From a virus (taxonomy: Duplodnaviria > Caudoviricetes): a stretch of DNA of 57,910 nucleotides. A program made the translations under genes and the position numbers. Where the stretch lies: positions 1-57,910 of IMG/VR virus record IMGVR_UViG_3300037424_000402. One strand, written 5' to 3'. Shown here in pieces: positions 3,370 to 7,626 of this stretch (within the stretch, counting starts at the first letter, position 1; each line of letters opens with the position of its first letter). Under the pieces are notes generated by a model that saw only the letters and a program-made list of their open reading frames with translations, was not told the DNA's origin and did not search any database.

Positions 3370-4350
3370 ATGAGCAAGATCGCGTATCGAGAGAAGCGGT
3401 TCGGAGACTCTGCAATCGTGCTGATCGATGCGAGCAACGAGATCATCGAGGAGTACGGTCGTCAGAATCTCACTCTCACCCTCCGGCAGCTTTACTACCA
3501 GCACGTCACGCGGAACACGATCCCGAACACGGATCGGAGCTACAAGAGCCTCGGGGCCATCGTGTCTGACGCGCGCCTCGCCGGCCTCATCGATTGGGAC
3601 GCGATCGAGGATCGTGTGCGGCAGCCTCGCCGGGCGAACGAGTACGAGAGTCTCAAAGACCTGACCGACGCCGCGCTCCGCTCCTACCGTCTCCCGAGAT
3701 GGAAGGGGCAGGACACCTATGCCGAGCTTTGGGTCGAGAAGGATGCGCTCGCTGGCGTGCTCGAACCACTCGCCCGGAAGTTCCACGTCACGCTCATGGT
3801 GAACCGCGGTTACTCATCGCAGTCTGCGATGTTCGAGGCGTCACAGCGGTTCATCGCCGCGTGCGAGAGCGCGGGTGTCGGCGACGGACCCGAAGACGAG
3901 GATCAGCCGGCGGACATCGCGTATCGTGACGGCAACGCCGAGACCGGCGGACAGGAGATCGATCTCGTCAGGCGCCCGGTGCTCTTCTACCTCGGGGACC
4001 ACGACCCGTCGGGCGAAGACATGGTGCGCGATGTCCGCGATCGGCTCTCGATGTTCGGCATCGACGTGGACGTGCAGAAGATCGCGCTCACCATGGCACA
4101 GGTGAAGCGATACAACCCGCCGCCGAACCCGGCCAAGGTCACCGACTCGCGCGCCGCTGGCTACATCGCGAAGTTCGGCGACTCCTCGTGGGAGGTGGAC
4201 GCGCTGCCGCCGAACGTGCTGTCACAGATCGTCACGTCGAGCTTCCGGTCGATCATCGATCAGGAGAAGATGGACGAGATCATCGAGAAGGAAGAGAGCG
4301 ACAAGAAGAGGTTGACCGCAGCCGTCTCGAAGATCGTGAAGGAGGACTAG
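3370..4350 (+). CDS. Spo11/topoisomerase VI-A-like winged-helix + TOPRIM protein
   Basis: LTLRQLYY (helix with candidate catalytic Tyr), WVEKDA, RGYSS, LGDHDPSG (DxD), WEVDAL. Confidence 0.75.
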   Translation: MSKIAYREKRFGDSAIVLIDASNEIIEEYGRQNLTLTLRQLYYQHVTRNTIPNTDRSYKSLGAIVSDARLAGLIDWDAIEDRVRQPRRANEYESLKDLTDAALRSYRLPRWKGQDTYAELWVEKDALAGVLEPLARKFHVTLMVNRGYSSQSAMFEASQRFIAACESAGVGDGPEDEDQPADIAYRDGNAETGGQEIDLVRRPVLFYLGDHDPSGEDMVRDVRDRLSMFGIDVDVQKIALTMAQVKRYNPPPNPAKVTDSRAAGYIAKFGDSSWEVDALPPNVLSQIVTSSFRSIIDQEKMDEIIEKEESDKKRLTAAVSKIVKED

Positions 4351-4353
4351 TCC

Positions 4354-4554
4354 ATGACGGCGACTGAGCTTAAGCTCCTCCGCATGGCGGCGAGCGGATT
4401 GATTGTGACTGCGACCGTGGAGGAGAGTGCCGTGCGGCACTCTCTCATCGATCGCGGGTTCATCCGGTGGGAGCAGAAGACGATCGGGAACGCGACGGTG
4501 GGCCACGACGTGATCACACAGCGGGGGCGCGACGCGCTCTCATGGGAGGACTAG
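4354..4554 (+). CDS. Small winged-helix-like protein
   Basis: SLIDRGFI...ITQRGRDAL pattern; GGAGG RBS. Confidence 0.55.
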   Translation: MTATELKLLRMAASGLIVTATVEESAVRHSLIDRGFIRWEQKTIGNATVGHDVITQRGRDALSWED

Positions 4555-4557
4555 GCC

Positions 4558-4788
4558 ATGACGATCCTCGCAATCACGATCTTCTGCAACTGCGGGAAAT
4601 GCATCACGCACGAAGGCTGCACGCTCGGTGGCGAGATGATGTGCTTCGAGTGCGCCGCGAAGATCGCCCGGGATCTGATCTCCAAGCCGGGGATCAGCGA
4701 CGCCGAGAGGAAGACGGCGATCGAGATCCTCGCTGTCGCGGCTGGTAGCAGAGAGGCGACTCCGCCCGACCGTAGCAAGATGAACTAG
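4558..4788 (+). CDS. Small Cys-rich (Zn-finger-like) protein
   Basis: CNCGKC...CFEC; GGAGG RBS. Confidence 0.55.
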   Translation: MTILAITIFCNCGKCITHEGCTLGGEMMCFECAAKIARDLISKPGISDAERKTAIEILAVAAGSREATPPDRSKMN

Positions 4789-5010
4789 CCGAGTGGCATG
4801 GATAGATCCGCGCGTCTGAAGCGAGCCGAGCAGCCTGATAGACACGACGTCAGTGAGCGAGCCGCGTGCATGTAAGAGGAACCGAGACCCCTAAGCGAGC
4901 CGACAGCGCAAGAGAGATCCGTTCTGTCGGAGCGAGCCGTCAAAGAAGAGACAACCGACCCAACCAAGCGCGCCGTGCTACCAGAGACACCCAACCCGAA
5001 GGAGCGAGCC
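4783..5010 (+). ncRNA. Upstream dual-repeat guide-RNA array (TIGR-like), about 6 units
   Basis: AGCG(A/C)GCC at 4820, 4856, 4894, 4931, 4967, 5003 (degenerate copy at 4783), alternating with A(G/T)AGATCC-like repeats and unique 9-11 nt spacers. Confidence 0.85.
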
Positions 5011-5952
5011 ATGACCGAGAATACCGAGCCCAAGCGGACGAAGAAGCCGAAGCGCACGCAGGAAGAGATCGACGCACTGAAGGCGGCAGGCGTGGAGCGC
5101 ACGACCGATCAGGATCGGTTCGCGCTCCGGCGCAAGGTCCGCATCTTCTACGACTTGCAGCGGATGCGGATGCAGGTGGCGGGTCGCACGCAGAAGAAGG
5201 CGGACGGGGCCGAGATCCAGCTTCACCCCTACGACCTCGCCACGCTGGAGAAGCGCGCGCAGGATCTCCACGTCGCGGAGACTGCCGCGCTCGCCGATGT
5301 CGAGGAGCACCTCGGGAGCATGAGCTTCTACACCGAGGTGCTTCTGAAGAACCGGGAGAAGTGGCGGGGGCTCGGGCCGACCCTGGCCGGCGTCCTGCTC
5401 TCCGAGTTCGACGTGCGCATCGCGGACACCGTCTCGAAGTTCTGGGCGTTCGCCGGGCTGGCACCCGTGCCGGCGTGGCGGTGCCGCAAGTGCAACACCG
5501 TCGTCGAGGCGGAGCCGTCCCCGAGTGGAGTGACCGGGTTCTGGAATCACGGCAAGTCGGTGATCCCGTGCGAGTTCACCGAGAAGACGCTCGCCGATGG
5601 AAATCTCGTCTACACCAGCGGCAAGGCGATGAGGCCGACGAAGGGGGAGAAGCTGCCGTACAACTCGTTCCTCCGCACGAAGATCGTCGGCGTGCTCGCG
5701 CCGAACCTTCTCAAGCTGGGGAGCCCTTACCGGAAGAGCTACGACGACTTCAAGCACCGGTGGGAGTCGGCCGGGAAGGGGAAGAGCGATGCGCACCGTC
5801 ACCAGGCGGCGATGCGCTACATGGTGAAGACGCTCTTGGCAGACTTCTGGGAGGCGTGGCGGCGTCACGCGGGATTGCCGGTGCGCCCATCGTACGCAGA
5901 GGAGAAGCTGAACAAGCCACCTCACAGCGGAGCCGTCGCCGTCGGTTCATAG
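5011..5952 (+). CDS. TasA-like Nop/IS110-C-terminal-domain RNA-binding protein with no nuclease domain and a CxxC insertion
   Basis: Coiled coil, then RGLGPTLAGVLLSEFD, SKFWAFAGLAP, KGEKLPYNSFLRT, YRKSYDDFK, AHRHQAAMRYMVKTLLADFW; no DEDD RuvC or HNH motif; flanked by dual-repeat arrays; AAGGAG RBS before ATG 5011. Confidence 0.8.
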   Translation: MTENTEPKRTKKPKRTQEEIDALKAAGVERTTDQDRFALRRKVRIFYDLQRMRMQVAGRTQKKADGAEIQLHPYDLATLEKRAQDLHVAETAALADVEEHLGSMSFYTEVLLKNREKWRGLGPTLAGVLLSEFDVRIADTVSKFWAFAGLAPVPAWRCRKCNTVVEAEPSPSGVTGFWNHGKSVIPCEFTEKTLADGNLVYTSGKAMRPTKGEKLPYNSFLRTKIVGVLAPNLLKLGSPYRKSYDDFKHRWESAGKGKSDAHRHQAAMRYMVKTLLADFWEAWRRHAGLPVRPSYAEEKLNKPPHSGAVAVGS

Positions 5953-6526
5953 AGATCCGTGACTCACGAGCGAGCCGCGTCATATGAGACTCCCGTAGGA
6001 GTGAAGCGAGCCGATAGCCCCGAGAGATCCGGAACCATGGAGCGAGCCGAATGCGGTAAGAGATCCGTGGTTCGATAGCGAGCCGAAGGAGTAAAGAGAT
6101 CCGACCGTCACGAAGCGAGCCGCCTGTTGGGAGTGATCCGTAACAGAAAAGCGAGCCGAAATATGGAGGAGAGATCCGAAAGCCCGGAGCGAGCCGTATG
6201 AAACAAGAGCACCGTCCATCTGGAGCGAGCCGTCAAGGGAAAGAGATCCGTAACCGAATAGCGAGCCGCTGTGATCCAGGGGAATCCCCGAAGCCCACAA
6301 GCGTGCCGATGAGCCAAAGAGATCCGATCGGTTTGAGCGGGCCGTGTAGAGCAAGAGATCCGGAGCCCATGAAGCGAGCCGCCATAGGTAGACACCCGGA
6401 GGAGTAAAGCGTGCCGAAAGGTGAAAGAGAGATCCGATCTGCGGGAGCGAGCCGTATAGGGAGAGAGATCCGCTGTCATAGAAGCGAGCCGATGTGGACA
6501 AGAAATCCGTTCCTCTTGAGCGAGCC
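5951..6526 (+). ncRNA. Downstream dual-repeat guide-RNA array (TIGR-like), 16 units of about 36 nt
   Basis: AGCGAGCC (or single-base variants) at 5969, 6005, 6041, 6077, 6114, 6150, 6188, 6224, 6260, 6300, 6336, 6373, 6408, 6446, 6483, 6519, alternating with AGAGATCC-type repeats; each internal repeat is followed by G and a unique spacer of about 9 nt. Confidence 0.9.
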
Positions 6527-7555
6527 ATGAAGAAGACGAAGAAGACAGAAGCGATTGCGAAACGCCCGACTCAGCCGACCGCTATTGCCACGTCGGCTGA
6601 TGTCGAGCGGGTCAAGGCGGCCGTCGAGACGTACGTCAAGGCGGCGAAGGCAACGAACACGGTGAGCGCGTACGGAGACGCGCGGTTGCACTTCGAGGCG
6701 TGGTGTCTGCGCTTCAACCTCTCAGCGTGGCCGGCGACGCCCGAGACGATCGTGGCGTATCTCTCGGACTGCGCTGCCGATGGTTCGGCGTGGAACACGA
6801 TCGCGCTGCGCCGTGCCGCCATTGGGGTGCAGCATCGGCTCGCGCTCAACGTCAACCCGCCACCGACGTCCGACGTGCGAGTGCGCGAGGTGATGAAGGG
6901 CATCCGGAAGAAGTCAGCACCGCCTCGCCAGCGCGCACCACTCACCGTGGACATGCTTCCAATGGTGCTCGCTGGGATCTCGACGTGGCCGCTGATCGAG
7001 CGTGATCGCGCTCGGGCTATTCTTCTCCTAGGAGTTGCGACGGCTCTTCGCGGGGAGCAACTCGCAGCGTTGCGTACCCCCGACGTACACGAGTTCGACG
7101 AGGGCCTCTCGATCCGCATTCACCGCGAGAAAACCGATCAGCTTGGGAAGGGTCGATTCGTGCAGGTGCCGCGCATCGACGGGCCGCTCTGCCCCGTCGC
7201 CGCGTTCATGGAGTGGATGGCGGACATTCCATCGAATGCGCTCGGGCCGATCTTCCCGACGCTGCGGCGAGGGGGTCACGTCAGCACGCGAGCAATCACG
7301 CGGAAGGACGTCCACCGGATCGTGAAGGATGCTGTTGCGGCGGGTGGCTTCGATCCAGCCGACTTCGGTGCTCACTCGCTGCGCTCCGGGTTCGTCACCG
7401 CCGCGCGAGCCAGGGGGATGGATTGGGGAGAGATCATGCGGCAGACGGGACACAAGCGGATCGAGACAGCGATGAAGTACGAGCGCCCGGTGGAGGGTGA
7501 CGCGGCGACGTTCGAGCGACTCGCGACGATGTGGAAGCCCCCGGAGCCCAGATAG
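6527..7555 (+). CDS. Tyrosine recombinase/integrase (Cre/Xer-like)
   Basis: SAM-like N-domain; catalytic set ALRGEQ, EKTDQ, HSLRSG, TGH, AMKY. Confidence 0.92.
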   Translation: MKKTKKTEAIAKRPTQPTAIATSADVERVKAAVETYVKAAKATNTVSAYGDARLHFEAWCLRFNLSAWPATPETIVAYLSDCAADGSAWNTIALRRAAIGVQHRLALNVNPPPTSDVRVREVMKGIRKKSAPPRQRAPLTVDMLPMVLAGISTWPLIERDRARAILLLGVATALRGEQLAALRTPDVHEFDEGLSIRIHREKTDQLGKGRFVQVPRIDGPLCPVAAFMEWMADIPSNALGPIFPTLRRGGHVSTRAITRKDVHRIVKDAVAAGGFDPADFGAHSLRSGFVTAARARGMDWGEIMRQTGHKRIETAMKYERPVEGDAATFERLATMWKPPEPR

Positions 7556-7556
7556 C

Positions 7557-7582
7557 GGAAGGGCCCCGTTAGGGGCCCCTCC
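7557..7582 (-). terminator. GC-rich hairpin at the convergence of the + and - strand blocks
   Basis: On the - strand GGAGGGGCCCC-UAAC-GGGGCCCUUCC forms an 11-bp stem; no clear U-tract. Confidence 0.6.
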
Positions 7583-7626
7583 TGGGATGACGCAGCGAGC
7601 CCGAGGCGGGCGCACCCATCGAGGTG

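Follow-up and report, generated by a model that had tools for sequence, protein, structure and literature searches.

The virus record IMGVR_UViG_3300037424_000402 (Duplodnaviria; Caudoviricetes) comprises 57,910 bases, and the whole of it is referred to here as the window. On its + strand, a gene for a Tas protein of 313 aa (tasA, 5011..5952) lies between two arrays of short alternating repeats, one upstream (4786..5011) and one downstream (5951..6527). The upstream array is preceded by a small open reading frame (ORF; 4558..4788), and the downstream array runs directly into a gene for a tyrosine recombinase, or phage integrase (6527..7555), which is followed by a GC-rich stem-loop (7557..7582). 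An initial annotation of this region had proposed a TIGR-Tas-like RNA-guided system. That proposal is upheld in every part that could be checked: the array units are laid out as Faure et al. define them (PMC12045711), the protein scores above the cut-off of the curated family model NF052498, and it matches the chains of solved TasR and TasH proteins. The locus is very probably a dual-repeat TIGR-TasA system within a rightward operon of a temperate phage of ~58 kb. The anatomy of the arrays, membership of the Tas family, the lack of a nuclease domain, the co-orientation of arrays and gene, and the recurrence of the same architecture in relatives were established in this analysis.

Both arrays consist of two 9-nt repeats in strict alternation, an edge repeat (AGCGAGCCG) and a loop repeat (AGAGATCCG). 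Exact copies of AGCGAGCCG number 16 in the 57,910 bases, all on the + strand within 4783–6526, with none on the - strand. At up to one mismatch, the locus holds 22 copies, six upstream of 5011–5952 (starting at 4820, 4856, 4894, 4931, 4967, and 5003) and 16 downstream (starting from 5969 to 6519). Over the whole window the same search returns 85 matches against a shuffle mean of 48.6, and none of 100 shuffles reaches 85. Successive edge repeats are spaced by 36, 38, 37, 36, and 36 nt upstream, and by 36, 36, 36, 37, 36, 38, 36, 36, 40, 36, 37, 35, 38, 37, and 36 nt downstream, which amounts to a period of 35–40 nt, with 11 of the 20 intervals measuring exactly 36 nt. There are 12 exact + strand copies of AGAGATCCG in the window, 11 of them within the locus and each of these flanked by edge repeats on both sides; this repeat, or a variant of it, sits midway between successive edge repeats.

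The resulting unit of ~36 nt reads edge, spacer A, loop, spacer B. Spacers are 9 nt long in 17 of the 21 units for spacer A and in 18 of the 21 for spacer B, and their final base is generally a purine (18 of 20 for A, 19 of 21 for B). The two alternating repeats, ~9-nt spacers, and ~36-nt period of the initial annotation are thus all present, with spacers mostly of 9 nt and a period that ranges from 35 to 40 nt. Its count of about six units before the gene and 16 after it, some 22 in total, is correct for the upstream array and needs adjustment for the downstream one, since parsing yields 21 full units, six upstream and 15 downstream, plus one partial unit downstream. The upstream array extends from a truncated edge repeat to a terminal edge repeat at 5003–5011. 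The downstream array opens with the partial unit, a loop repeat (5951–5959) and one spacer, which overlaps the tasA stop codon; its 15 full units then follow within 16 edge repeats (5969...6519). An edge-like sequence with one extra base, AGCGGAGCCG, is also present at 5926–5935 in the last tasA codons, 15 nt before the first loop repeat, and the array may therefore reach into the tasA coding sequence.

A repeat of the AGCGAGCC class closes both arrays, and the first repeat of the upstream array is a copy of that class truncated at its 5' end (TAGCCG, 4786–4791). Because the arrays begin and end with this class, it was assigned as the edge repeat and the variable class as the loop repeat; arrays that open and close with edge repeats have been described by Faure et al. 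(PMC12045711). Edge copies vary at position 5 alone. Loop copies vary at positions 3–6, the pattern to be expected if a G:C pair closes a small loop. In one case the loop repeat is expanded to AGGGGAATCCCCG (6278..6290, + strand), a hairpin with a 4-bp G:C stem and a 3-nt loop, and the initial suggestion that the variable class is the loop repeat agrees with both this hairpin and the array ends. In a close relative, a metagenome contig designated L024, the counterpart of the expanded-loop unit keeps both spacers and has a different aberrant loop.

Edge and loop repeats of the window alike start with AG and end with CCG. Termini are likewise shared between the two classes in 11 of the 12 loci with stacked arrays, L016 being the exception, and the first repeat base shifts jointly in both classes (AG/AG in eight loci, CG/CG in L001 and L015, TG/TG in L018). 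In these stacked loci the repeats end in CCA, or in a mix of CCA and CCG. For the TasR structure it is reported that box D, where a repeat starts, and box C, where it ends, make identical contacts with the two protomers in both repeat classes, and that they covary between loci (PMC12045711). The pattern of repeat conservation in the window fits this model of the TasR ribonucleoprotein (RNP), with the difference that box C is CCG in the window and CCA in the published TasR consensus. The AG...CCG repeat variant recorded in the initial annotation does occur in both classes, but by comparison of the repeats the CCG ending is a lineage variant common to relatives and not unique to the window phage.

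An ORF of 182 aa on the - strand (5980–6528) covers the entire downstream array, and it could be supposed that the region encodes a protein. This is almost certainly not the case. The GC contents at its three codon positions are 0.56, 0.56, and 0.60, lacking the third-position excess of real genes here (0.78–0.89), so the array is non-coding. Long stop-free runs are to be expected, as the + strand contains only 13% T (shuffle mean 114 codons, with 4% of shuffles reaching 181), and units of 35, 37, 38, and 40 nt bring the repeat into each of the three frames.

Searched with a sequence model derived from 20 units, the rest of the genome yields no unit (lowest E-value 0.11), and in the upstream array the model matches lie on the + strand. 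A solitary unit after the integrase gene (AGCGAGCCC at 7594) was considered and is unsupported by this model. Tandem Repeats Finder missed the arrays, and Rfam returned no match for them. RNA of the downstream array is no better folded than shuffled sequences (z = +0.46), which fits the dual-repeat type of TIGR array rather than the stem-loop type. The window spacers are slightly more alike than expected, with five pairs within two mismatches against 1.5 expected from shuffles. Separately, the spacers at 6086, 6382, and 5996 (AAGGAGTAA, GAGGAGTAA, and TAGGAGTGA) have the common motif xAGGAGTRA, reminiscent of a ribosome-binding site with a stop codon after it.

The NCBIfam model NF052498 ('TIGR-Tas system RNA-guided endonuclease') has a cut-off of 100 bits; the protein encoded between the arrays scores 110.4 bits on it, over residues 40–284 and across the whole profile, and is also matched by PHROG 4285 at 4.9e-29. 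When a profile of 29 relatives was compared with all PDB chain sequences, the only matches were TaTasR (9MTY, 3.3e-18) and SpTasH (1.5e-12). The protein can be classed from its alignments as a nuclease-less TasA, because the TaTasR match is confined to chain residues 119–314 and leaves the RuvC part without a counterpart, because only 39 residues, basic in character, precede the matched Tas domain, and because Pfam shows no nuclease family in the window protein or its relatives. It is thus homologous to SpTasH (from Salicola phage CGphi29) and TaTasR over their coiled-coil and Nop parts, but has neither their HNH nor their RuvC domain. The tasA reading frame is intact, with a third-codon-position GC content (GC3) of 0.89.

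The closest published parallels are the dual-repeat TIGR-TasA systems of Flavonifractor plautii (FpTasA) and of a member of the Minisyncoccota (MbTasA, a tested repressor), in which a nuclease-less Tas protein likewise lies beside alternating edge and loop arrays. As in these systems, each 36-nt unit of the window holds two spacers of ~9 nt, and the arrays lie on both sides of the gene in the same orientation. The window TasA is probably set apart from FpTasA and MbTasA by a shifted histidine, discussed below, and by an insertion with a CxxC...H...C motif at residues ~157–190 (window 5479–5580), which is absent from the solved TasR and TasH proteins. The insertion measures ~47 residues in TasA, compared with two at the same place in TasR and five in TasH. 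The anchors on both sides of the insertion could be placed in 166 relatives, and 80 of these have the motif. A label of BED zinc finger was tried for the insertion and rejected, as only one of 29 relatives matches, and that one below the cut-off. In the excerpts returned by a literature search for TasA and tigRNA together with zinc, the combination appeared only in a general review of genome engineering.

Three other kinds of system were compared with the locus. The recombinases of IS110 elements, which use a bridge RNA, have the C-terminal RNA-binding domain in common with TasA, the Pfam family Transposase_20 matches 23 of the 29 TasA relatives, and databases give the family a 'transposase' label. 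An Atlas structure model of TasA (predicted template modelling score 0.70) has as its nearest structural neighbours clusters that are automatically named IS110 transposase or are unnamed, and that are mostly viral. Identity as an IS110 transposase was nonetheless rejected: the score on the corresponding model NF033542 is 23.2 bits, where 140 would be required, over residues 31–154 only, and there is no DEDD catalytic domain. IS110 elements moreover have a single bridge RNA, in contrast to the arrays of many units found here. CRISPR arrays resemble those of the window in having interspaced repeats with variable spacers and an adjoining effector gene, and in a unit content that varies between close relatives with shared units kept collinear. 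They differ in having a single repeat of 25–36 nt, spacers of similar size, and cas genes, whereas the window has 9-nt repeats of two alternating kinds with paired 9-nt spacers. No cas-like match was found among 70 ORFs scanned, no PADLOC match among the four locus proteins scanned, and no match in Rfam. The third kind, the box C/D snoRNP proteins Nop5 and Nop56/58, was rejected on the Pfam Nop model (PF01798), to which the text returns below.

TasA belongs to a large family. An exhaustive profile search recovered 3,892 clusters (at 50% identity) with E-values of 0.001 or lower, 593 of them at 1e-30 or lower, and a word-index search identified 166 relatives among 8,000 candidates. The Atlas cluster that contains TasA has 941 members, 90% of them viral, and is automatically named 'IS110 transposase'. 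A collection of species genomes yielded one locus only, and a distant one, and only three cultured phages carry a relative. Among 19 viral loci (of which L001 and L004 represent the same phage), arrays were found in 11 by exact k-mer chains, in 13 when lag autocorrelation was added, and in 16 when weaker model matches were also counted. Public phage records still give such loci the label 'transposase' or no annotation at all. Ralstonia phage phiRSL1 (L075) has a degenerate 36-nt dual-repeat array at 3608–4510, in an unannotated 1.4-kb gap after ORF034, and this ORF, labelled 'transposase', encodes a protein 32% identical to the window TasA. Genes for RNA repair lie just upstream of tas in two other loci, namely Hen1 and an RlaP-type nucleotidyltransferase in L003 (245–3364), and an RNA ligase in L030 (320–1672).

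Across 13 loci, all 45 repeat-model matches lie on the tas strand. This bears on the alternative that the repeats are iteron-like or centromere-like DNA sites for a phage protein rather than parts of guide RNAs, a role that short direct repeats flanking the gene of a nucleic-acid-binding protein could in principle serve. A uniform strand is expected of a transcript and is not needed for DNA sites. The protein also has its homologs among RNA-binding Tas proteins whose RNP structures have been solved, and the concordance of box D and box C between the two repeat classes matches the RNA–protein contacts reported for TasR. DNA sites are accordingly a very improbable explanation of the arrays.

L024 is a contig of 4.1 kb whose parts stand in the same order as in the window: a small upstream gene, an array of 12–13 units, tasA (88% DNA identity), an array of ~14 units, and a tyrosine recombinase gene. 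The upstream array has thus six units in the window and 12–13 in L024. Of the 20 window units compared, five have a counterpart in L024, at an edit distance of 0–3, where the closest unrelated units differ by 7 or more. These five are collinear, with unrelated units between them (window 4820–6518, L024 307–2221); the unit with the expanded loop, described above, comes in addition to them. The two phages are otherwise 88–97% identical, but window 6346–7532 and L024 2082–3226 are unrelated in DNA sequence, over a stretch that takes in the distal units of the array as well as the main part of the recombinase gene, and the two recombinases are 33% identical over the catalytic half. Homology resumes at window position 7533, 23 nt before the integrase stop codon, and continues at 96.8% over 759 nt. 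One contig each in sequencing runs X3 and X4 also starts matching at 7533.

A third, more distant relative includes one contig in which 138 other letters replace 99 nt of array, with both flanks kept. Taken together, the comparisons with L024 and with this third relative imply that arrays in the lineage change by whole units or blocks, and that their distal units move together with the integrase. Units duplicated in tandem are visible elsewhere in the family, as a block of 180 nt and five units in L008 (4908–5159) and as an adjacent, near-identical pair in L011 (1816–1887). On this sequence evidence, the two cases suggest that arrays grow by duplication.

On the reading of the locus as a dual-repeat TIGR-TasA system, a + strand transcript would run through the upstream gene, the first array, tasA, the second array, and the integrase gene. 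A TasA dimer would bind each unit through the box D (AG) and box C (CCG) of its edge and loop repeats, and the precursor would be cut near the middle of each edge repeat to release ~21 tigRNAs of ~36 nt. In each tigRNA, spacers A and B would pair with different DNA strands, so as to specify a contiguous target of ~18 bp. As TasA is without a nuclease domain, its binding would block transcription or replication and would not cleave the target. The likely function is therefore to bind DNA under the guidance of RNA and leave it uncut. That the locus is transcribed and its RNA processed, that TasA dimerises and binds DNA, and that there are biological targets is proposed here by homology to characterised members of the family. 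No RNA data set is listed among the nine sequencing runs returned for the locus, which carries no information on expression. TasA proteins have been reported to bind target DNA and to repress transcription in Escherichia coli (bioRxiv 10.64898/2026.09.09.750476).

Several results weigh against this reading. The first concerns the Nop domain that the initial annotation had attributed to the gene: the Pfam Nop model PF01798 has no match in six frames of the window at E-values up to 10, although the same model found matches in five control genomes, above the cut-off in four of them. Homology to the solved Tas structures does hold, and it is from this that we infer the Nop-type core of TasA. The second concerns processing. 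SpTasH processes its own precursor by means of Y289 and H296 (PMC13421893). Tyr295 of TasA aligns with Y289 and is invariant in 29 of 29 relatives, and several Arg, Glu, and Lys positions near it also align with SpTasH; the histidine, however, stands at +10 from the tyrosine (H305) rather than at +7 as in SpTasH. Of 194 relatives, 91 have their first histidine after the tyrosine at +7, and 16 have it at +10.

A third point is that neither array is followed by a rho-independent terminator, which Faure et al. describe as typical (PMC12045711). Genes start at once instead: tasA and the integrase gene begin on the last base of their respective arrays, and in relatives genes begin 0–57 nt past the array. 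In this the window differs from the published dual-repeat TIGR-TasA systems, as it does in having both array ends fused to start codons. The last point is that the search for targets of the paired spacers, envisaged in the initial annotation, was run on three data sets and produced no target above background. In the phage's own genome, scanned with both strand arrangements of the spacers, gaps of 0–2 bp, and up to three mismatches, there was one match, at three mismatches, against ~1.0–1.6 per geometry for mismatched spacer pairs. The 21 guides had no match in 73 related loci (352,662 bases), except in two loci that had been fetched with the same pattern. One guide, compared with the viral collection, gave one match per geometry, both of which amount to background; patterns of 18 nt are expected to match by chance in collections of such size. 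Difficulty in finding targets is also reported in the papers on the family.

Some of these observations could also be explained if the locus were a decaying or inactive relic, with repeats that are inherited and guides that are no longer processed or used. Decay would account for the degenerate loop repeats of the upstream array (ATAGACACG, AGACAACCG, and AGACACCCA), the spread of unit lengths from 35 to 40 nt, the displacement of the processing-dyad histidine by three residues, and the lack of targets in the phage's own genome or related loci. It fits poorly with edge repeats that are kept near-perfectly, in 16 exact copies, and with an intact tasA that retains the GC3 of a coding gene. In addition, a sequencing run from another study contains an identical locus, and a relative at 88% identity keeps the architecture while its units turn over, which is the behaviour of an evolving array and not of a frozen one. 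A relic is thus distinctly improbable, and the reading as a dual-repeat TIGR-TasA system is retained.

The junctions between arrays and genes deserve separate consideration. In both the window and L024, the ATG of tasA and that of the recombinase gene start on the last base of a terminal edge repeat (AGCGAGCC-ATG; window 5003–5013 and 6519–6529, L024 741–751 and 2222–2232). The Shine–Dalgarno sequence of tasA, (A)GGAG, begins in the last spacer and runs into box D of the last edge repeat. An edge-type repeat abuts the tas ATG, with at most one mismatch and a gap of 0–1 nt, in 4 of 23 loci (window, L024, L001, and L026), and the control rate of such abutment at random positions is 4% at a looser threshold of two mismatches. 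In L030 an edge repeat is found at the tas ATG with a 1-nt deletion; an automatic match at the tas ATG of L002 was discounted as a GC hairpin.

A proposal in two separate parts can be drawn from the turnover of units and from these junctions; it is tentative and on balance unlikely to hold. In one part, the arrays of the lineage would evolve by exchange of unit blocks, together with the adjoining integrase, between related phages, rather than through a dedicated machine for spacer acquisition. In the other, the terminal edge repeats would double as translation-initiation regions of tasA and the integrase gene. Binding or cutting by TasA in the terminal repeat would then mask the ribosome-binding site or separate it from the gene. 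If true, TasA would be under negative feedback, and the output of integrase, hence the lysogeny decision, would be tied to the maturation of guide RNAs. The idea that TasA feeds back on the translation of both tasA and the integrase gene is put forward here as conjecture. Within the excerpts returned by a literature search for autoregulation by tigRNAs, the word appeared only in a cited reference on Cas9, and the 2026 preprint, in the parts consulted, raises a coupling of maturation and translation for intragenic stem-loop units only (bioRxiv 10.64898/2026.09.09.750476).

A different role for the junctions would be that the system serves the neighbouring integrase, with complexes of TasA and guide bending or marking DNA for integration, or with the array controlling integrase expression. 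Fusion of the integrase ATG to the terminal edge repeat has been kept in the window and L024 even though the integrases are only 33% identical, and Faure et al. speculate on RNA-guided help for integrases (PMC12045711). No guide, however, matches the phage's own genome above the control level, and hence none matches attP. Of 46 loci examined, some of them duplicated across collections, just three (L024, L063, and L064) have a tyrosine recombinase gene near tas. No homolog of the window integrase lies beside tas in 19 viral loci. Scanned with Pfam, the 93 flanking ORFs from 18 viral loci (L004 having been dropped as a duplicate of L001) include no integrase, and the 62 from 27 metagenome loci include one. 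Service to the integrase is accordingly improbable for this locus, and a general functional link of tas to integrases is not supported.

The TIGR-Tas family was described in 2025 and has a curated NCBI model. The window locus is a further member of this large family, and adds little as an instance. Its value lies in being a clean natural example, in a phage genome that looks complete, with a close relative for comparison. How arrays gain and lose spacers, and what role a nuclease-less TasA has in a phage, are named as open questions in the excerpts of the field's papers. The pair formed by the window and L024 offers unit-level turnover with collinear shared units, a swapped integrase module, and arrays embedded in an operon with start codons fused to edge repeats.

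The remaining features concern the flanks of the locus and the genome as a whole. The small upstream ORF (+ strand) encodes 76 aa with a CxxC...CxxC motif, and the region of its stop codon overlaps the first, truncated edge repeat. It has a GC3 of 0.86 and is 95% identical in protein and 94% in DNA to its L024 counterpart; no match to it was found in Pfam, PHROG, or NCBIfam. The integrase gene, also on the + strand, starts flush with the end of the array, and its product is matched by Pfam PF00589 at 6.7e-10 and by PHROG_1 (integrase) at 5.7e-24, with the R, HxxR, H, and Y motifs readable in the translation. The stem-loop on the + strand stands immediately 3' of the integrase stop codon, and the fold of 7556–7600 has an energy of -24.2 kcal/mol. 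It likely marks the end of the transcription unit, and is missing from the terminator scan because it lacks a run of T.

The window represents the whole virus record and carries direct terminal repeats, with an exact repeat of 127 bp, by which the phage genome looks complete. Replication genes lie on the + strand and structural genes on the - strand. No tRNA gene that might assist host prediction was found in the record. The gene at 3370–4350 shows 68–73% DNA identity with siphophages of Xanthomonas, Xylella, Stenotrophomonas, Pseudomonas, and Microbacterium, in which its counterparts are annotated as DNA topoisomerase or DNA-binding protein (PHROG 6247).

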